Shown here piece after piece: positions 3,991-58,756 of a stretch of DNA of 64,000 nucleotides (its first letter is position 1; the number at the start of each line of letters is the position of its first letter). A program made the translations under genes and the position numbers. The stretch covers positions 2,308-66,307 of the forward strand of contig JAJDBT010000113.1 in NCBI GenBank assembly GCA_029261215.1. Direction: 5' to 3'. The notes beneath the pieces are model-generated. The model was not told the origin of the DNA. It saw only the letters and a program-made list of their open reading frames with translations, and did not search any database. The stretch is from Nitrospirota bacterium. Lineage in GTDB: Bacteria; Nitrospirota; Nitrospiria; SBBL01; JAADHI01.

Positions 3991-5226
3991 TTAGAGCGCC
4001 TCCACCAGTTTTTTTGTCCATGCAGCGGCTTCCTGCTCTGCAGAAAACAACCTCGACAAATCCAATTGACATTGATCCACCAATGTCTCAACTGCCAAAT
4101 AATCAGACTGCTCAACCTTTTCGACAAGCATGAGCAGACGGCCCAAGTCTCCTTTTCGTTCGAGCAAGGCCTCAGAGATGGGATCGGCCAGGGTAAGATC
4201 CGCCAAAACTTCCGACATGGGCCGAAGGAGCAGGGCATCAATTAACGACAAAATCCCCGTCATAAATGCCATATCGACTTCTTTTTTCTCTCCACCCAGG
4301 GCACCTTTTTGAACGAGAAGTTCCATAAAACGGCCTCTCATCACAGCGGTCTGCAATAAGGGGTTTTGTTGTCCAGGCGTATCTCCGTAAGTAAATAGCA
4401 GCACCTGGGCCCATCGGTTCAGCTGGGCTCTCCCCAGAAGCACGATGGCCTGACGAATGGTTTCAATTTGAGTTCGGATATTCAGTGCAGCAGAATTGAC
4501 AAGACGCAGCAAATGATAACTCAAGGAGGGACTGGCGTGAAATGTTTCTTCTATTTCGCTTAATTCTGCATCCCGTGAAACCTGATACATCAACTTCATG
4601 ACAGAGACACTCGAAGGGTCAATTTTTTTACCGCCGACAATCGATGGGCGTTCAAAATAATAGCCTTGAAATAACTCAAAACCCAATGCCCGCGTCCGAT
4701 CAAATTGATACATATCCTCGACTTTTTCCGCCAAAAAGGTCAGAGGCCAACGTTTGAGCGGCACTAGCATTTCTTCAATGAATTCCGGGCTTACGGTCAT
4801 CAAATCAAATTTGATGATATCAATAGATTCAAAAATGGCTTGATAAGTGGGTTTATAGATAAAGTTAGACAAAGCCAGGGTATACCCCATTGCTTTTAAA
4901 GACTTACAGCGATTGAGCACCCTTTGGTTCATTTCAATGCTTTCAAGCAATTCGATGACCATTTGCGCTCTTGGGAATAATTCGATCCAATCGCTCATTA
5001 AGATTTCACTGTTCACCTTCAAAAAAATCTTATGGCGATTCCCGACAACCTCTTCCAGTCCAAAATCATACAAGGTTTCCATGATGCCATCGACAGAGCT
5101 TTGCTCAGTGCACAACAGATTGGAACCAGCGTTCTGATCAGAACGCAGCAGCACTTCAAATCCGTGCAGCTGATTTTTAAGATCCAGAATGGGTTGTCTG
5201 CTAATATAAATTTTTTCACTCACCAT
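3991..5226 (-). CDS. EAL-like plus HDOD domain signalling protein (COG3434-type)
   Basis: N-terminal EAL-like motifs (QPILD...FEVLLR, AEKVE, QGYYFERP) with LALSNF where DDFG is expected. The C-terminal half is HDOD-like (HLLRLVNSAALN..., LLFTYG). Confidence 0.7.
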   Translation of the reverse strand: MVSEKIYISRQPILDLKNQLHGFEVLLRSDQNAGSNLLCTEQSSVDGIMETLYDFGLEEVVGNRHKIFLKVNSEILMSDWIELFPRAQMVIELLESIEMNQRVLNRCKSLKAMGYTLALSNFIYKPTYQAIFESIDIIKFDLMTVSPEFIEEMLVPLKRWPLTFLAEKVEDMYQFDRTRALGFELFQGYYFERPSIVGGKKIDPSSVSVMKLMYQVSRDAELSEIEETFHASPSLSYHLLRLVNSAALNIRTQIETIRQAIVLLGRAQLNRWAQVLLFTYGDTPGQQNPLLQTAVMRGRFMELLVQKGALGGEKKEVDMAFMTGILSLIDALLLRPMSEVLADLTLADPISEALLERKGDLGRLLMLVEKVEQSDYLAVETLVDQCQLDLSRLFSAEQEAAAWTKKLVEAL

Positions 5227-5330: not shown

Positions 5331-6014
5331 TTATTTTAAAAATAAAATATCGACCCTTCTGTTTTTTGCTCGATTTGATGCGGTGTCATTTGAGACGAGC
5401 GGGCGGCTGTCGCCATATCCCGCCACAGAAAAACGTTCCGGTTTTAGTTTTTGATCTTTTAACATGTAGCGGACAACACTCCCGGCACGCGCCACAGAAA
5501 GATCCCAATTTGAATGAAAACGCGGTGTCGAAATGGCTTGATTGTCAGTATGTCCGCCGACTTGAATCCCATAGGTGGCTCCCTGGGTGATTCGGACAAT
5601 TTCATCCAAAACCTCTTCCGCTTCATGCCGCAGGTTTGCTTCACCCGAATAAAACAAGATCTCGCTCGATACCGAAATAATTACACCTTCTTTTTCCCGC
5701 CTTAACTCCACTTTTCCTTGAAGCCGCGTGGTGTCGAACATTTTTTTGACTTCCGAAGGAGAAAATTGTTTCATGACACGAGGATCAAACAAGCCGGATT
5801 CTGGCGGCATGACGGGCATATCGGTTCCTGACCGGAGCACCCCAATCCCCCCCTGGCGAAAATAACCTAATGTTTCTTCCAACTTTCCCTGGTCTACGGA
5901 TTTCATGGCAAAAAGCAGCACAAAGAAAGTCAGCATCAAACTCAGCAGGTCGGCAAAAGTCGCCATCCACGCGTCGGTATCCTCCTTTTCCTCTACCTTT
6001 TTTTGTCGCCCCAT
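5331..6014 (-). CDS. motB: Flagellar stator protein MotB (OmpA-like peptidoglycan-binding C-terminus)
   Basis: N-terminal TM WMATFADLLSLMLTFFVLLFA carries the conserved channel Asp. OmpA-like C-terminus GGHTDN...NWDLSVARA...NRRVDILF. Its start abuts the stop of the upstream paralogue. Confidence 0.85.
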   Translation of the reverse strand: MGRQKKVEEKEDTDAWMATFADLLSLMLTFFVLLFAMKSVDQGKLEETLGYFRQGGIGVLRSGTDMPVMPPESGLFDPRVMKQFSPSEVKKMFDTTRLQGKVELRREKEGVIISVSSEILFYSGEANLRHEAEEVLDEIVRITQGATYGIQVGGHTDNQAISTPRFHSNWDLSVARAGSVVRYMLKDQKLKPERFSVAGYGDSRPLVSNDTASNRAKNRRVDILFLK

Positions 6015-6713
6015 TTACTCCGCAGCCTCAAGCAATACGATACGAACCCGTCGATTTTTTGCCCTGTTCTTAGGGCGGTCATTGGGTACAACGGGTCTAA
6101 ACTCACTGAAGCCCACAGCCGTCATGCGGCTGGCCGATATCTTTTTTTCATTCTGGAGATACTGCAAAACAGCCGCCGCACGAGAAGCGGAAAGTTCCCA
6201 GTTCGATGGAAATTTCAAACTGGCCACCGGAATATTATCGGTATACCCTTCAATCCTTATAGGATATGGATATTTTTCTATGATTCGCCCCACTTCAGAC
6301 AATAAATGTTTTGATTCCCCTCGAAGAACGGCCTCGCCTGAAGGAAAAAGAAATTTTTCTGCCACATGGATAATCAGGTCATCGCCCTCTTTCGTAATCA
6401 TCGTTTCTTCATCATAGGCATTTTCAGAAATCATCCGCGTAAATTCCCTGCCCACAGAAAGATGGGATTCACCAAAAGAAAGCATCGGCGCACCCGGAAC
6501 TAGGATTTTCTTCCCTTCACTCAGGTGAAGACCGCTGGGCAGCATCCCAAATGTACCCGCCAGTGATCCGAGCGCTTTTTTTATTTTTTTGTCATCATCC
6601 ACTCCAATCGAATTCAAATAGACAAAGAAAATAACCAGGATGAGGTTCAATGAAACCATCATCACCATGAGTCCAGATTTTGCCTCTTCGTCTTCCTGTT
6701 TCTTTCTTCCCAT
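6015..6713 (-). CDS. MotB-like paralogue with no acidic residue in the TM helix
   Basis: Same architecture as MotB (basic N-terminus, one TM, OmpA-like EGYTDN...NWELSASRA...NRRVRIVLL), but the TM reads LMVMMVSLNLILVIFFVYL with no Asp or Glu. Confidence 0.7.
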   Translation of the reverse strand: MGRKKQEDEEAKSGLMVMMVSLNLILVIFFVYLNSIGVDDDKKIKKALGSLAGTFGMLPSGLHLSEGKKILVPGAPMLSFGESHLSVGREFTRMISENAYDEETMITKEGDDLIIHVAEKFLFPSGEAVLRGESKHLLSEVGRIIEKYPYPIRIEGYTDNIPVASLKFPSNWELSASRAAAVLQYLQNEKKISASRMTAVGFSEFRPVVPNDRPKNRAKNRRVRIVLLEAAE

Positions 6714-6748
6714 GATGCTTTATCCGACCCTCATGCTGAGCAAATCCA

Positions 6749-7516
6749 TTATGCTTCTGCCGCGACGCTTCGATGGCTGGGTGATAAAAAGACCTGAAGT
6801 TTTTGCTCCATGACCCTTGGGTTTTCACCCGAGGCAATGGATAAGATTCCTTCTAAAATGAGTTCCTTCACGAGCATTTCTTCTTTATTTCTCTTTTTGA
6901 GTTTTCCCGCCATCGGTAAAAAGATCAGGTTTGCCGTCAGTGCGCCGTAAAACGTCGTGATCAATGCCACCGCCATGGCAGGACCAATTTTACTCGGGTC
7001 ATCCAGCTTTTGAAGCATTTGCACGAGACCAATCAGTGTTCCGATCATCCCTAATGCAGGCGCAAATGTGGCAAGGGTCGTGAGGATTTCCGCCCCCAGT
7101 TTATGCCGATCTTCGACGTAGTCCACCTCTTTTTCCAACACGGATTGAATGGAGCTGACTTCAATCCCGTCAATGAGCATTTGCATCCCTTTTGAGAGAA
7201 ACCCGTCTTTGATGTCTTTGATCATGGGTTCGATGGAAAGAATGCCTCCGGTACGGTTTTTATTGGCCATATCCACAAGTATTTCAATGAGTTCGCTGCC
7301 CGATTGCAGTTTAAACAAAAAGACATTTTTCACGACCTTGACCACGCTGAAGAAATCTTTTAGAGGGTAATTGATCAGCGTCACCCCTACCGTCCCTCCA
7401 AGCACAATCGCGGCCGAAGCCGCATCCCAGAAAATAAGCAAAGTCCCCCCGCTTAAAATACCGAAAAGGACAAGCCCAAAAGCAACGACTACACCGATGA
7501 GTGATGCGAGATCCAT
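6749..7516 (-). CDS. motA: Flagellar stator protein MotA/PomA
   Basis: 255 aa with four TM segments and the MotA/TolQ/ExbB signature (ATFAPALGMIGTLIGLV...AVALITTFYGALTANLIFLP). Confidence 0.88.
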   Translation of the reverse strand: MDLASLIGVVVAFGLVLFGILSGGTLLIFWDAASAAIVLGGTVGVTLINYPLKDFFSVVKVVKNVFLFKLQSGSELIEILVDMANKNRTGGILSIEPMIKDIKDGFLSKGMQMLIDGIEVSSIQSVLEKEVDYVEDRHKLGAEILTTLATFAPALGMIGTLIGLVQMLQKLDDPSKIGPAMAVALITTFYGALTANLIFLPMAGKLKKRNKEEMLVKELILEGILSIASGENPRVMEQKLQVFLSPSHRSVAAEA

Positions 7517-7586: not shown

Positions 7587-7988
7587 TTACCCCATTGATT
7601 CATTTCTAAGCTGATCAAGATGGGTATTAATTTCAGTTTCGATCTTTTCAACATGCGTATCCGCGTTATAAAGCACTAACTTCTGGAGATGTCCGTAACT
7701 CTCAAGACCAAGATGACTGACAAATTGCACCCCCATGCCCAATGCATTGGTATAGACCACCCTCACCTTCGAATGGACAAGCACCTCGTTGTCGCTGCCA
7801 GGCACAAAGAGCCTCACGATACATTCAGATCCGGCCAGATAGGGTGTTTCCAAATGCACAAAAAGGCCACTGATGCTAATGTTCTCGGTTTTCCCAGTTC
7901 GTATCTGGTGATCGGAGAGACGTTCCATTTCAAGGTCTATTTTCAAAGATATCCGGGTATAGCCTCTTACGTTGATATCAGCATTCAT
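7587..7988 (-). CDS. Stand-alone PilZ domain protein (putative c-di-GMP receptor)
   Basis: It has both c-di-GMP binding motifs: RxxxR (RGYTR) and N-x-S-x-x-G (NISISG). 133 aa, located directly upstream of motA. Confidence 0.75.
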   Translation of the reverse strand: MNADINVRGYTRISLKIDLEMERLSDHQIRTGKTENISISGLFVHLETPYLAGSECIVRLFVPGSDNEVLVHSKVRVVYTNALGMGVQFVSHLGLESYGHLQKLVLYNADTHVEKIETEINTHLDQLRNESMG

Positions 7989-8048: not shown

Positions 8049-8741
8049 CTAAAAACCATATTCCTTTAAGACACGATCAACGAGTTGCTGATCCAGTTTT
8101 TCCCCTGAAGCAGAATATTCAAGTTCGCTCAAAAGCGCTTCTTTGTGCTCCGGGCCGGGATCAGATTCAGGGTTATTTTGACCAAAGGTGACGACCATTT
8201 TTAAAAGACGAGACTGAAACACCTTCAACATGGCATTCACTTTTCTGAGCTGTTGTCCGGCGGGATCCTGAAAAGAAAGCGTCCCGACAAGGTTCATCAT
8301 TGTGAGCTTGTTTTCGTCCAGCAATTGCGTCAGGTGCTTTAAATTCGCTTCAAGGTTTTCTTTTTCAATAGGCGATTCATGATTTAAAGCGGTTTGAATG
8401 TCCTCTATGCGTTCCGACATCAAGCTATGATTCTCAACGATTTTATCGGCATCATCCAGAATTTTGGTCGTGGCTTCTTCGGTTTTACGGTGGACATCCT
8501 GCAATTCGTCTCTTCCAATGTGAAGTTCGCTTGAAACACTCTCCATGATAGAACCTGCCGTTCGAACCTTCGTCACCATTTTATTTAAATAAAGAGCCAA
8601 TTCACCTACTTCGGCATAAAGATCAGGACCCATTAGAGATTTTGATGCATTCTCATGATTTTCGGAGCTCTTTTTCATATTCAAATGCGCCTTATGCGCC
8701 TCATCTCCATCGTGCTCTTCTTTTATATGGGGAACCGGCAT
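8049..8741 (-). CDS. cheZ: CheY-P phosphatase CheZ-like
   Basis: Catalytic motif SFQDPAGQQ (compare E. coli FQDLTGQ with D143/Q147). The C-terminal peptide LVDRVLKEYGF resembles the CheY-binding tail ...DDLLDSLGF. Located immediately downstream of cheY. Confidence 0.72.
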   Translation of the reverse strand: MPVPHIKEEHDGDEAHKAHLNMKKSSENHENASKSLMGPDLYAEVGELALYLNKMVTKVRTAGSIMESVSSELHIGRDELQDVHRKTEEATTKILDDADKIVENHSLMSERIEDIQTALNHESPIEKENLEANLKHLTQLLDENKLTMMNLVGTLSFQDPAGQQLRKVNAMLKVFQSRLLKMVVTFGQNNPESDPGPEHKEALLSELEYSASGEKLDQQLVDRVLKEYGF

Positions 8742-14609: not shown

Positions 14610-15920
14610 TCAGCGCGCGTTCAATAAGTAGTCCACCTCAACCGTGTTTCCACCATTCAAAAAATGAACCCTGCTCGACAGTGAATGAATCAAGGTGATG
14701 CCTTTTCCAGAAGGGACACTCGTATGATCGTCTTGCCTTTTAGGGTAGTCATGAGTGTCAAAACCTTCCCCGCTGTCTTCAATACGGAGCCTTATCCAAT
14801 CTTTGCCAGACTCCGCCCTCCGTTCCATAAAAATATCGACGCGGCCTTCTTCAAGAAGATGCAGTCTCTGGGAACGTTGGTTTAAATACCCTTCAAAACC
14901 CGTAGAAGACGATTTGAGCCCCGAATCCAATCCGAGCAATCCATGATCAACGGCATTGGTATAAAGTTCTGTCAGGATAAGAAAAAGACGCTGTGTATCC
15001 CTCTGCGCGATGCTGGCTTGTTTTAGCCAGGTCAGTAAAATCGGGAGTACATCAATGTTTTTAATATCTGCTTCACTTAAATGAAGCGAAACACGCCAGT
15101 GATGCGGACCACTGTTTTGAGATTCTTTTGGAAGTGCCTCAATCGCTTTTTGAGGAAAAACGCCAAGACCGCAATTCACCACAATAAGAGAAATATCATC
15201 TTCCGCTTCCTTCTCGCCGAGATAATCCATCACGCTTTTCTTTAAGTTTTGGAAACGATGGGGCGCGTCTGCATGAAATAGCGTCTCCTCTAATCTCGAG
15301 GTGCCAAAAAGCTGATCGCTTTCATCTCTCGCATCAATTAAACCATCTGAGTGCAGATAGAGCTGCCCAGGCTTGTCCCATTGAAAATAGGAGACTTTCT
15401 CATCAAAATCTTTGTCGGAAAGCACACCGATCGGCAGGTGATTCGATTTCCAGCGCTGAACAATCTCACCGTCCTCACTCATAAAAAAAGGAGTCGGTCC
15501 GCCGCCATTCCAAATCTCAATGGTTCGATTTGACGGATTCACAGAAGCCAGCGTCGCGGCAATAAAACGATCCCTGGGTAAGAGGGTATGCATTTTTTTG
15601 TTTAATTCTTTGGCAATGCTCCCGATTGGAAAACCTTTGCCCGTCATCGCATAAAAGATTTCTGAAACAGGCATCATACAAAGCGCTGTGGCAAGTCCGT
15701 GTCCAGTGCCGTCCCCTAAAATGACATGCAGACGATCTCCCGCCGTCATCCGGGCGGCAATCACATCTCCGGAAAACTCTGCGGCGGGAAGAAGCCAATG
15801 CTGGAACAAATCGGGATCGACTTGAATATCACGAACCAGATTCCCCATGACGTAGCGGGCCAGACTCAGGCTTTTTTCAGTGCCGTCGCGATACCTTTGA
15901 TGATGAGTGACTGAATTCAC
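14610..15920 (-). CDS. Fused PP2C (SpoIIE-type) phosphatase and RsbW/SpoIIAB-type Ser kinase (HATPase_c), HsbR-like but without a receiver domain
   Basis: PP2C motifs ILGDGTGHG, LHSDGLID and DDISLIVV. C-terminal HATPase has N-box ELYTNAVDHG, G1 DSGEGF and G2 GKGITLI. Only about 50 aa precede the PP2C domain. Confidence 0.8.
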   Translation of the reverse strand: MNSVTHHQRYRDGTEKSLSLARYVMGNLVRDIQVDPDLFQHWLLPAAEFSGDVIAARMTAGDRLHVILGDGTGHGLATALCMMPVSEIFYAMTGKGFPIGSIAKELNKKMHTLLPRDRFIAATLASVNPSNRTIEIWNGGGPTPFFMSEDGEIVQRWKSNHLPIGVLSDKDFDEKVSYFQWDKPGQLYLHSDGLIDARDESDQLFGTSRLEETLFHADAPHRFQNLKKSVMDYLGEKEAEDDISLIVVNCGLGVFPQKAIEALPKESQNSGPHHWRVSLHLSEADIKNIDVLPILLTWLKQASIAQRDTQRLFLILTELYTNAVDHGLLGLDSGLKSSSTGFEGYLNQRSQRLHLLEEGRVDIFMERRAESGKDWIRLRIEDSGEGFDTHDYPKRQDDHTSVPSGKGITLIHSLSSRVHFLNGGNTVEVDYLLNAR

Positions 15921-56578: not shown

Positions 56579-58756
56579 CTATGTGCTGACTGCGTGCTTT
56601 TTTGTCCATGCTGAGGCCCAGTGCATCATTTCATCTCCTGAAATGGGAGGAGAAAAAAAATAGCCTTGAATTTCATCACAGCCTATCCTGGCTAAGCGAT
56701 CCAGCGTCTCCTGGTCTTCCACACCCTCCGCGATGATGTTTATTCCCAGGTTGTGGGCCAGATCAATCATTGAACGCACGATGACTTCATTGTCTGTTTC
56801 ATCCAGCATGTCTTTAATAAATGAGCGATCGATCTTTATGGAATGGATCGGCAGACGTTTTAAATAACTCATCGACGAATAACCTGTCCCAAAATCATCC
56901 AACGCAAACTTAATCCCTTTCTCCCCAAGACAAGTCACAATTTCCATCGCTCGGGTCGGATCATCCATAATAATACTTTCCGTAATTTCCAGTTCAAGAT
57001 TTTCAGGACGAAAATCAGCTCTATAAATCAAATCAAAGATTTGATCGACCAGCCTCAAATCACGAAGGCTGCGGACAGAAAGGTTCACGGCAACAGACAA
57101 GTGTATTCCCTCTCGTTCCCAAGCCTTTGATTGCGCCATTGCAGTTTTCAAAACCCAAAAAGTGAGCGGTTTGATTAAACCTGTTTGTTCCGACAAGCTG
57201 ATAAATTGATCAGGAGGAATCACTCCGTACTCAGGATGGTTCCATCGAACCAGGGCTTCGACCCCGATCACCGTTTCACTTTCAAGGTGAACTTTTGGCT
57301 GATACAATAAAAACAATTCTTCATTTTGAATCGCCTGACGCAGATCACTTTTCAGAATAAGACGTTTCAGGCTGTGTTGGTCTTGCGCACCGGAATACAG
57401 CATGATGTTTGTGCCGGAAGATTTGGCCATAGACATTGCAATATCTGATTTTTGAACAAGGGTATGCACTTGCTCTCCGTGATCCGGGAAAAGAGCAATA
57501 CCAATGCTTGCACTCACTTCAAGTGAGACCCCATCAATAAGGAATGGATCTTCCAGCTTTTTTAAAATCTTTCTCGCAAAACGTTCCGCATCTTTCCCCG
57601 TTTTAGTCCCGCCCAGCAATATCGCAAACTCATCGCCTCCAAAACGCGCCAGCGTATCCGATACCCTCAAAACCCCTTTGACCCTTGAACTCACATTCTG
57701 CAATAAGATATCGCCGTATTTATGGCCCAGCGCATCATTCACCTCTTTAAAACCGTCGAGATCCATCAACAACACTGCAATACGGTCTTTATTCCTGCGG
57801 CCATTCAAAATCGCTTGTTGAAGCCGATCAAGAAAAAGAACACGATTAGGCAAATTGGTCAGGCCATCATGCAGGGCCCGATGGCGTAACAAGGCCGCCT
57901 GTTCATGATGCTCCGTTGTGTCTTGAAAACTCCATACACGGCCGATACTCTGATCATCGATCCACTGAGGATAGGAAGAACATTCCAGAACTGTTCCATT
58001 TTCAAGTTCAAAAACGTCAAAACTGACCTCTTCAGGATGACAATATGGATTGATCAACTTTTCAAGAAGCTGTCCTGAATCTCGCAATCCACCCTGCATA
58101 TGTGAGATCACCTGCTCATCCGTCGATGTAATGATCGATTTCGGGATATGCCACATTTTTACAAAATACTGATTATATCGGACAATCTTTCCAGAATGAT
58201 CAACAACCAAAATCCCGACCTGTGTCGATTCAAGGGTTGCATCCAGCAAAGCATTTGAATGCTTTAACGCCACTTCAGTTTCCTGAGGTGTTTTGGATTC
58301 CGCTTGAATAGCATCCCACAGACCCCGTAACTCAAGATGGTTGATGATTAGTCTCACAAGTGCTTTTAAAGCCTCTTGTTGTTCGTGAGTCAAAAGGCGA
58401 GGGAGAAAATCCATGACACAGACCGTGCCAAGGGCAATGCCTTCCTGAGAAATGAATGGCATGCCAGCATAATATCGAATCTTGGGCCCAGAAATGACCC
58501 ACTCCGATGCATTAAATCGCTTGTCTTTCAGCGTGTCAGGCACTTCAAAAAATTGAAGTGCCTTTATCGTATATTCACAACATCCGATATTTTGATCCAG
58601 CTTTTCAAAACCAATACAGGCTTTTGGCCAATTTCTTTCAATGTCAGTGAATACAATTTTTGCAAGAGGAGTTTGACATATTTCCTTCGCCAGACGAACG
58701 AAGTCATCCAGTGAAGGATCTTGTATTGAGCTTAACAAACTTTCATCCGGAAACAT
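56579..58756 (-). CDS. GAF-PAS-GGDEF-EAL c-di-GMP turnover protein
   Basis: GGDEF active site RFGGDEF with I-site RVSD five residues upstream. Intact EAL motifs (EALVRW, ELEITES, ALDDFGTGYSS, KIDRSF, AEGVED, QGYFFSPP). GAF-like and PAS-like N-terminus. Confidence 0.9.
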   Translation of the reverse strand: MFPDESLLSSIQDPSLDDFVRLAKEICQTPLAKIVFTDIERNWPKACIGFEKLDQNIGCCEYTIKALQFFEVPDTLKDKRFNASEWVISGPKIRYYAGMPFISQEGIALGTVCVMDFLPRLLTHEQQEALKALVRLIINHLELRGLWDAIQAESKTPQETEVALKHSNALLDATLESTQVGILVVDHSGKIVRYNQYFVKMWHIPKSIITSTDEQVISHMQGGLRDSGQLLEKLINPYCHPEEVSFDVFELENGTVLECSSYPQWIDDQSIGRVWSFQDTTEHHEQAALLRHRALHDGLTNLPNRVLFLDRLQQAILNGRRNKDRIAVLLMDLDGFKEVNDALGHKYGDILLQNVSSRVKGVLRVSDTLARFGGDEFAILLGGTKTGKDAERFARKILKKLEDPFLIDGVSLEVSASIGIALFPDHGEQVHTLVQKSDIAMSMAKSSGTNIMLYSGAQDQHSLKRLILKSDLRQAIQNEELFLLYQPKVHLESETVIGVEALVRWNHPEYGVIPPDQFISLSEQTGLIKPLTFWVLKTAMAQSKAWEREGIHLSVAVNLSVRSLRDLRLVDQIFDLIYRADFRPENLELEITESIIMDDPTRAMEIVTCLGEKGIKFALDDFGTGYSSMSYLKRLPIHSIKIDRSFIKDMLDETDNEVIVRSMIDLAHNLGINIIAEGVEDQETLDRLARIGCDEIQGYFFSPPISGDEMMHWASAWTKKHAVST

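Follow-up and report, generated by a model that had tools for sequence, protein, structure and literature searches.

Here we report that a flagellar stator locus of a Nitrospirota bacterium encodes, beside one MotA and one ordinary MotB, a second MotB-type protein that lacks the aspartate of the ion channel. The locus lies on the minus strand of a 64,000-nucleotide (nt) stretch of contig JAJDBT010000113.1 (assembly GCA_029261215.1), the whole of which is called the window below; the gene in question is here named motB' and its product B'. Similarity and conservation far beyond chance identify B' as a MotB paralogue, and we suggest, with a probability of about 0.45, that it is an integral stator subunit that binds no ion, and that it takes part in a putative MotA5:MotB'1:MotB1 unit with one carboxylate. 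Stators are MotA5:MotB2 complexes, and the transmembrane (TM) aspartate of MotB (Asp32 in Escherichia coli) is essential for ion translocation. We regard the B' family as a new variant of this known machine, so far without a name or a model of its own.

The stator locus and the Asp-less paralogue

The locus consists of three consecutive genes, read in the order motA, motB', motB, and the features on which the argument depends are the following (window coordinates).

6749..7516, minus strand: motA, PomA-like stator A subunit of 255 amino acids (aa); Pfam MotA_ExbB (1.9e-31) and MotA_N.
6015..6713, minus strand: motB', encoding B', the Asp-less MotB paralogue (232 aa); Pfam OmpA (1.6e-17), MotB_plug below threshold.
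6606..6671, minus strand: TM helix of B', residues 15-36, LMVMMVSLNLILVIFFVYLNSI, with no acidic residue.
6651..6653, minus strand: codon TCA for Ser21 of B', at the channel-Asp position in the pairwise and multiple alignments.
5331..6014, minus strand: motB, canonical stator B subunit (227 aa); Pfam MotB_plug (4e-18, 65 bits) and OmpA (2.2e-19).
5949..5951, minus strand: codon GAC for Asp22 of MotB, the channel aspartate.
6012..6017, minus strand: TAA-ATG junction of motB' and motB, with a 0-nt spacer and in one frame.

The gene order and coordinates given by the first-pass annotation, which had listed motA, a MotB-like gene and motB, match the list of open reading frames, and its statement that the start of motB abuts the preceding stop is borne out by the junction, which reads GAG-TAA-ATG-GGG with a reading frame common to both genes. 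The intergenic gaps are 35 nt between motA and motB' and 0 nt between motB' and motB. With a single TAA between the two in-frame genes, read-through of the stop would fuse their products, an event that the topology of the proteins makes probably meaningless. No other MotA or MotB was found by tblastn in the 64-kb window, and the triplet is thus the stator locus of the cluster. The best NCBIfam match of MotA is PomA (289 bits, below the cut-off), and its nearest relatives in the PDB are Clostridium sporogenes MotA (6ysf, 2e-69) and Vibrio PomA (8bri, 3e-61). The canonical MotB has the TM helix WMATFADLLSLMLTFFVLLFAM, with Asp22 in the motif FADLLSL.

B' aligns from end to end with the adjacent MotB in BLASTP (32% identity, E 1e-40). 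In this alignment Ser21 of B' stands opposite Asp22 of MotB, Asn23 occupies the +2 position, and the helix LMVMMVSLNLILVIFFVYLNSI holds neither Asp nor Glu. The protein begins with a short, basic N-terminus, MGRKKQEDEEAK, which leads into a hydrophobic helix of 22 residues. The ATG is preceded, 9 nt upstream, by an in-frame TAA, and the homologues all begin at the same M-A/G-R-K-K; since B' cannot be extended upstream and shares its start with its homologues, the missing Asp is not an artefact of annotation. A mis-called start that hides an acidic residue is excluded on the same two grounds.

Profile searches place B' near the stator families without assigning it to any of them. Its score against MotB_plug (PF13677) is 16.3 bits against a cut-off of 24, while other clades of B' pass this model. 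The top NCBIfam matches of B' are models for MotB, MotD and MotS, all below their cut-offs (138.8 bits for PRK08944, cut-off 259; 138.3 for MotD, cut-off 283), and the canonical partner MotB also misses its NCBIfam cut-off (172 vs 283). A full-length match to PRK06667 covers residues 5-230 of B'. The matches to TssL and DotU span the OmpA domain alone and fall far under the cut-offs. By sequence, the nearest solved relatives are C. sporogenes MotB, from the 6ysf stator complex, which is the best, and also PomB and MotS. A reading of B' as a Pal-, OmpA- or TssL-type protein was rejected on the full-length alignments with MotB and PRK06667, the adjacency to motA and the solved stator relatives.

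The description from which we started had given both B proteins a basic N-terminus, one TM helix and an OmpA-like domain, and had given the first of them no channel Asp. Both points are upheld for B', the second in the window protein and likewise throughout its family. Alignment against the MotB, PomB and MotS families, which had been proposed as the check, returned B' as a true MotB paralogue, and neither of the two findings that would have spoken otherwise, a mis-called start or a Pal-type protein, was encountered.

Queried against 5.8 billion proteins, B' recovers 42 at 43-100% identity that match OmpA and do not match MotB_plug; those with names all belong to Nitrospiria or Nitrospirota, and more distant matches come after them. 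Once the best 120 matches are aligned, the Asp column is occupied by Ser (58), Gly (31), Ala (2) and Asp (only 28). A profile (A2) built from 22 diverse members was then compared with 1.84 billion representatives at 50% identity, and among its best 150 matches 55 are without the Asp, with Ser (25), Ala (23), Gly (4) and one each of Asn, Pro, Thr and Cys in its place. By these alignments the substitute is a small neutral residue and not a conserved polar ligand. The earlier description of Ser and Asn at the aligned positions thus stands for the window protein (Ser21, Asn23) and fails as a family-wide pair of ligands, the column being Ser, Ala or Gly. Ser21 and Asn23 as conserved ion ligands were rejected, since Ala and Gly are just as common in this column.

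Several types of Asp-less helix can be told apart. The type VMMVSLNLILLIFFVYLNSI is that of Nitrospiria and hardly varies even where overall identity is down to about 45%; VLFTSLSVILLAFFILLNSM occurs in metagenome-assembled genomes (MAGs) labelled Nitrospinota and Deltaproteobacteria, WEIVYSGFVLILLCFFIMLSSF in Desulfobacterales, and VLTISLFLIILIFFILLNSI is a further type. The family is thus found in MAGs of three labelled groups, Nitrospiria/Nitrospirota, Nitrospinota and Deltaproteobacteria/Desulfobacterales. The nearest database relatives of the window are MAGs labelled Nitrospiria, Nitrospira sp. and Candidatus Manganitrophaceae; a cultured host was sought among the named relatives, and the names returned were all those of MAGs. 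In databases the members of the family are annotated as "MotB" or "OmpA family protein", and none of the curated models captures them. Full-text literature searches, whose coverage leaves out most subscription journals, found no description of an Asp-less MotB paralogue family, and a survey from 2025 of the phylogeny and structure of 379 MotAB homologues (PMC12505986) makes no mention of an Asp-less B paralogue.

Residues, gene order and selection in the B' family

What B' has kept and what it has lost were compared column by column between 55 Asp-less and 77 Asp-type representatives (clusters at 50% identity). The columns in which the two groups differ, numbered from the channel Asp, are as follows.

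Position -6: Trp in the Asp-type group (73/77); Phe or Trp in the Asp-less group.
Position -3: Thr in the Asp-type group (70/77); Leu, Met or Ile in the Asp-less group.
Position 0: Asp in the Asp-type group (77/77); Ser, Ala or Gly in the Asp-less group.
Position +3: Thr or Ser in the Asp-type group (74/77); Leu, Ile or Val in the Asp-less group.

Both groups conserve the helix equally in its periplasmic half (+4 to +16, [IL]LLxFF[IV]xLxS), where the second Phe is invariant, and the plug positions D+20, K/R+23, S+30, L+31, G+41, F+43 and G+44 are conserved alike. In the periplasmic domain the OmpA residues D159, N171 and R178 are conserved in the B' family. Judged from these columns, the loss in B' is specific to the ion-path residues of the cytoplasmic half of the helix (W, T, D, T), and what is retained are the segments responsible, in solved stators, for packing inside the MotA pentamer, for plugging and for peptidoglycan binding. 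This pattern of loss and retention is the one expected for a chain that packs in MotA5 and against MotB without handling ions.

In an AlphaFold2 (AF2) model of B' (mean pLDDT 78) a long TM-plus-plug helix spans residues 9-54, followed by a disordered linker and by a periplasmic domain whose pLDDT exceeds 90, and the top Foldseek matches of that predicted domain are MotS and PomBc5 (TM-score 0.86-0.91). MotA itself is ordinary in the triplets, the threonines of GT(L/I)IGL and TTFYG and both conserved prolines being kept.

Two further observations concern single lineages. In the B' homologue of locus L086 (1609-2388 of that locus) the Arg of the OmpA motif is also gone (SNWELSTVMS vs SNWELSxxRA), and peptidoglycan binding by B' may not be required everywhere. 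In the 'WE'-type lineages L082 and L087 the invariant FF is directly preceded by Cys in B' and by Val in its partner B; in other lineages this residue is Ala, Ile or Thr in B' and Thr in B. This change could be co-variation across a B'-B interface, a weak hint that derives from a single phylogenetic event.

Gene order was compared over 12 loci (the window, L001-L003, L081-L083 and L085-L089). All 12 have the order motA-B'-B, a single motA and a partner B with its Asp, which answers the earlier proposal that conservation of the triplet be checked. In the window, and likewise in the 11 related loci, B' stands next to motA inside a flagellar or chemotaxis gene cluster, and in the Nitrospiria loci the triplet comes after cheY-cheZ-(DUF454)-PilZ. 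In five loci labelled Nitrospinota, Deltaproteobacteria or Desulfobacterales (L082, L085-L088) it is part of a core operon, flgE-(flbD)-motA-B'-B-fliL-fliM-fliN-fliO-fliP, which in MAGs so labelled runs on as fliOPQ; L081 keeps only the fliL-fliP side, and L083 lies outside any flagellar operon. In the core operon the triplet occupies the place that a plain motAB pair has in many bacteria, and by this position B' appears as a constitutive structural part of the flagellum. In nine of the 12 loci B' and B are spaced by -8 to +3 nt, consistent with coupled, roughly equimolar synthesis; the remaining three have gaps of 16, 61 and 68 nt.

Selection on B' was gauged in five Nitrospiria loci. Synonymous differences (pS) are saturated there (0.64-0.85), and nonsynonymous differences (pN) range from 0.05 to 0.15 in A, with B' at 0.12-0.29 and B at 0.14-0.25. 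Across 10 triplets, pairwise identity averages 0.60 in A, 0.41 in B' and 0.42 in B. These values indicate purifying selection on B' as strong as that on MotB. A decaying duplicate or pseudogene was excluded by a pN close to that of MotB against saturated pS, and by the nearly invariant TM helix.

In a neighbour-joining distance tree of moderate support the B' sequences form one bipartition (61/100 bootstrap replicates), the partner B sequences fall within ordinary MotBs, and the branching orders of B' and partner B are similar. This topology fits one old duplication followed by co-diversification of B' and B. The tandem motB genes of Desulfurobacterium (L016) and of an Elusimicrobia MAG (L009) are, in the same tree, events independent of the B' duplication. 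The Elusimicrobia locus (4024-6206 of L009) reads motA-motB(Asp)-motB2, and its motB2 has Asn at the Asp column with the other hallmarks kept (WVIPYGNLMT). It clusters with its own neighbour, an independent and apparently more recent loss of the carboxylate with the gene order reversed (B then B').

Possible roles of B' in the stator

In the arrangement that we favour, B' would take one of the two central MotB positions in the MotA pentamer, beside one canonical MotB. Each of the two B chains would supply its own TM helix, plug helix and peptidoglycan-binding domain, such that the unit would assemble, be plugged and anchor normally, and the coupling-ion carboxylate would sit on the MotB chain only. 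The Ser, Ala or Gly of B' would act as a permanently neutralised Asp that passes the hydrophobic MotA interface with no ion bound or released; with one ion site and one ion path, a turn of the MotA ring would take about 5 ions vs 10. Because the locus has one motA and tightly spaced B'-B genes, such a heteromer is the simplest use of B'; what we infer is the heterodimer itself and its one-site mechanism. A small neutral residue resembles a permanently protonated Asp, a state that is permissive for rotation in current models. A recent preprint (10.64898/2026.04.14.718414) describes protonation of at least one Asp as a prerequisite, with the two sites alternating.

Several points weigh against this heteromer. 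In current models the two Asp residues take turns at every 36 degrees (10.64898/2026.04.14.718414). B' could equally form A5B'2 homodimers, the B'-B gap is 16-68 nt in three loci, the bootstrap for B' monophyly is 61%, and the comparative data are MAGs and metagenomic contigs throughout. The main counter-argument comes from E. coli, in which Zhou, Sharp and Blair reportedly found in 1998 that substitutions of MotB Asp32 are non-functional and dominant-negative. Such dominant-negative behaviour, together with the alternation of the two Asp residues, means that a one-Asp unit would need a modified mechanism or co-adaptation. That the flagella of these lineages run with a naturally asymmetric 5:1:1 stator bearing a single ion-binding carboxylate is a claim that we hold to be doubtful.

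The roles first proposed for an Asp-less chain, namely heterodimer partner, inactive unit and anchor, are still the right set to weigh, B' being a true MotB paralogue. It is unlikely, and less probable than the heteromer, that B' forms separate non-conducting MotA5:MotB'2 units that dock without giving torque and serve as a brake, as a placeholder or spacer that limits active stators, or as a stored pool of MotA. B' is equipped for assembly with MotA and for peptidoglycan binding and has no carboxylate, and E. coli MotB Asp32 mutants are known as dominant-negative units that occupy motor sites; however, motB' stands upstream of motB in the same tight unit, usually the core operon, so that an inhibitor encoded there would be constitutive and at a level equal to its target across the three labelled groups, whereas the known brakes YcgR, MotI and EpsE are under separate regulation. 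Free mixing of B' and B would yield heterodimers anyway, and the extreme conservation of the B' TM helix exceeds what a passive plug would seem to need. A place for B' outside the MotA ring, as a membrane-anchored, peptidoglycan-binding scaffold that positions or stabilises MotA5MotB2 in the way of MotY and the T-ring, PflB or FliL rings, would suit its intact OmpA-like domain and the position of the triplet directly upstream of fliL in most loci, and periplasmic stator scaffolds are reported as additions in many lineages (PMC7990780). Yet the TM helix and plug of B' keep the conserved positions of MotB, including the invariant FF, which a mere anchor would not need, and none of the known scaffolds is a MotB paralogue whose TM helix and plug are of the MotB type; we consider such a scaffold improbable. 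It is very unlikely that B' conducts by another route, with Ser21 and Asn23 coordinating Na+ or with an acidic residue supplied by MotA, as a second B subunit of different ion specificity. The PomA-like MotA, in which the Thr residues of the Na+ site are kept (GT(L/I)IGL, TTFYG), and the polar Ser and Asn of the window helix speak for it, but the family has Ser (25), Ala (23) or Gly (4) at the Asp column, the +2 position varies among S, A, M and others, T-3 and T+3 are now hydrophobic, and a polar ligand is conserved nowhere. We know of no MotB, PomB, ExbD or TolR without a carboxylate that conducts.

The last alternative concerns the neighbours of the triplet in the window, two of which have domains linked to cyclic di-GMP (c-di-GMP).

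7587..7988, minus strand: single-domain PilZ protein (133 aa), directly upstream of motA; Pfam PilZ (1.4e-09, 38.6 bits, cut-off 22.5).
3991..5226, minus strand: EAL-HDOD protein, downstream of motB; Pfam EAL (44.9 bits) and HDOD (46.5 bits).

The PilZ protein has the motifs RxxxR (R8-R12, RGYTR at 8) and NxSxxG (36-41, NISISG), and no solved close relative of it was found. Its adjacency to motA is kept in L002, L003 and L089, the Nitrospiria loci with the upstream flank read. The EAL-HDOD protein has LSNF in place of the metal-site motif DDFG; its EAL domain is probably degenerate and may sense c-di-GMP without being catalytic. Loci L001-L003 carry the gene, the Nitrospiria relative L089 does not, and the PilZ and EAL-HDOD genes are both absent from all triplet loci outside Nitrospiria. 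This restriction marks them as a lineage-specific addition and not as part of the logic of the triplet. The PilZ protein probably works with MotA as a partner that responds to c-di-GMP, of the kind represented by YcgR, MotI and FlgX.

A c-di-GMP-controlled choice between the B subunits, in which the PilZ and EAL-HDOD proteins select B or B' for MotA and thereby an active or a braked motor, had been put forward as an attractive hypothesis in the first-pass annotation. The PilZ protein with its intact motifs upstream of motA, the conserved adjacency and the EAL-HDOD gene downstream are what suggested it. It finds no support in the distribution of the triplet, which occurs without either gene in the Nitrospinota, Deltaproteobacteria and Desulfobacterales loci; within Nitrospiria, moreover, EAL-HDOD is gone in L089 and its EAL domain looks degenerate. 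PilZ is cytoplasmic, whereas the difference between B and B' lies in the membrane, and neither the close gene spacing nor promoter and terminator scans gave a sign that B' and B are regulated separately. Between the genes of the triplet, scans for sigma-70 promoters and terminators found sites no commoner than in shuffled sequence, a weak negative that leaves sigma-28 and sigma-54 promoters uncovered. YcgR and MotI have MotA or the rotor as their target and do not select a B subunit. FlgX is described as a stator-binding PilZ protein (PMC11725899) and not as a selector of this kind. We consider a choice of this kind very unlikely.

Genomic setting, related systems and implications

The triplet belongs to a supercluster (window 5331-45212) that holds nearly the whole flagellar and chemotaxis gene set. 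On the minus strand are fliK, flgD, flgE, fliL, fliM, fliP, fliR, flhB, flhA, flhF, flhG and fliA, followed by cheD, a SpoIIE/HATPase fusion, cheA, cheW, cheY, cheB, cheR, cheY, cheZ, PilZ, motA, motB', motB and EAL-HDOD; on the plus strand are sigma-54 regulators and fliF, fliG, fliH and fliI. The fusion (14610-15920, minus strand) joins a SpoIIE-type PP2C phosphatase to HATPase_c_2, an anti-sigma-like kinase domain, and lies between cheA and cheD/fliA; it may exert partner-switching control of a flagellar sigma factor. A CheZ-family phosphatase (8049-8741, minus strand; Pfam 3.5e-13) stands beside CheY in this Nitrospirota-type chemotaxis operon; CheZ is usually associated with Proteobacteria. 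About 11 kb past the flagellar cluster, a PAS-GGDEF-EAL protein (56579-58756, minus strand) has a strong EAL match of 252 bits. 

The locus shares much with the canonical stators MotA5MotB2, PomA5PomB2 and MotP5MotS2 (6ysf, 8bri): one A subunit of MotA/PomA type, a setting in flagellar gene clusters, and B chains with a basic N-terminus, a single TM helix (LLLxFFVxL), a plug segment and a PomB/MotS-like OmpA domain. It differs from them in having two distinct B genes after one motA, the first of which encodes a chain without the Asp, Trp and Thr hallmarks. The closest described arrangement is the motA-motB1-motB2 operon of Aquifex aeolicus, with one motA and then two tandem motB genes; B1 and B2 share 97% identity in their N-terminal and TM regions and differ in the periplasmic part, and either one sustains motility in chimeric form (Takekawa et al. 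2015, PMC4525482). In the loci described here, by contrast, the TM regions have diverged and B' is Asp-less, and the duplications are independent in the tree. The Desulfurobacterium locus is of the Aquifex type, with Asp in both copies.

One A subunit with two different B subunits is also found in AglR-AglQ-AglS of Myxococcus xanthus, in which one MotA/TolQ-type protein is accompanied by two MotB/TolR-type proteins and heterodimers are an open question (PMC9389320, PMC9120999). That system is a gliding motor and not a flagellar one, has no OmpA domain and belongs to another clade. Engineered E. coli MotB with Asp32 replaced (D32N/A) resembles B' in that it assembles and cannot bind the coupling ion, the neutral residue mimicking a protonated Asp; those, however, are laboratory alleles with loss of function, reportedly dominant-negative (Zhou, Sharp and Blair 1998), whereas B' is a natural paralogue, long selected and encoded together with a wild-type-like MotB.

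A more distant analogy is offered by rotary ATPases. In V-type c subunits and in c1 of Acetobacterium woodii, a duplicated ion-binding helix has lost its carboxylate yet stays in the assembly. The loss changes the number of ions per revolution, which for the stator is hypothetical and holds by analogy only; the c subunits are an unrelated protein family in another machine. The small PilZ protein with c-di-GMP-binding motifs, encoded here directly upstream of motA, is comparable to the PilZ-domain stator regulators and partners YcgR, MotI/DgrA and FlgX (PMC11725899); this likeness concerns the neighbouring gene and not B', and applies to the Nitrospiria loci only.

According to the accepted mechanism of MotAB, PomAB, ExbBD, TolQR and ZorAB, an identical pair of central chains uses its aspartates in turn, in steps of 36 degrees. 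A conserved natural module with a carboxylate-free second chain is a ready-made test of this two-Asp model. If the three proteins form one rotating complex, then one site suffices, two alternating aspartates would not be obligatory for rotation of a 5:2-type motor, and step size, ions per revolution and torque become measurable. If B' forms dead units instead, the family would represent a stator inhibitor that is genetically built into the core flagellar operon. In either case the B' family merits a name and a curated model of its own, lest stator counts and ion-type predictions in these phyla mislead. Should the heteromer prove correct, the ion cost per revolution of the flagellar stator, its 'gear ratio', could be halved by evolution, and this may be read as an adaptation of energy-limited nitrite and manganese oxidisers and sulfate reducers.

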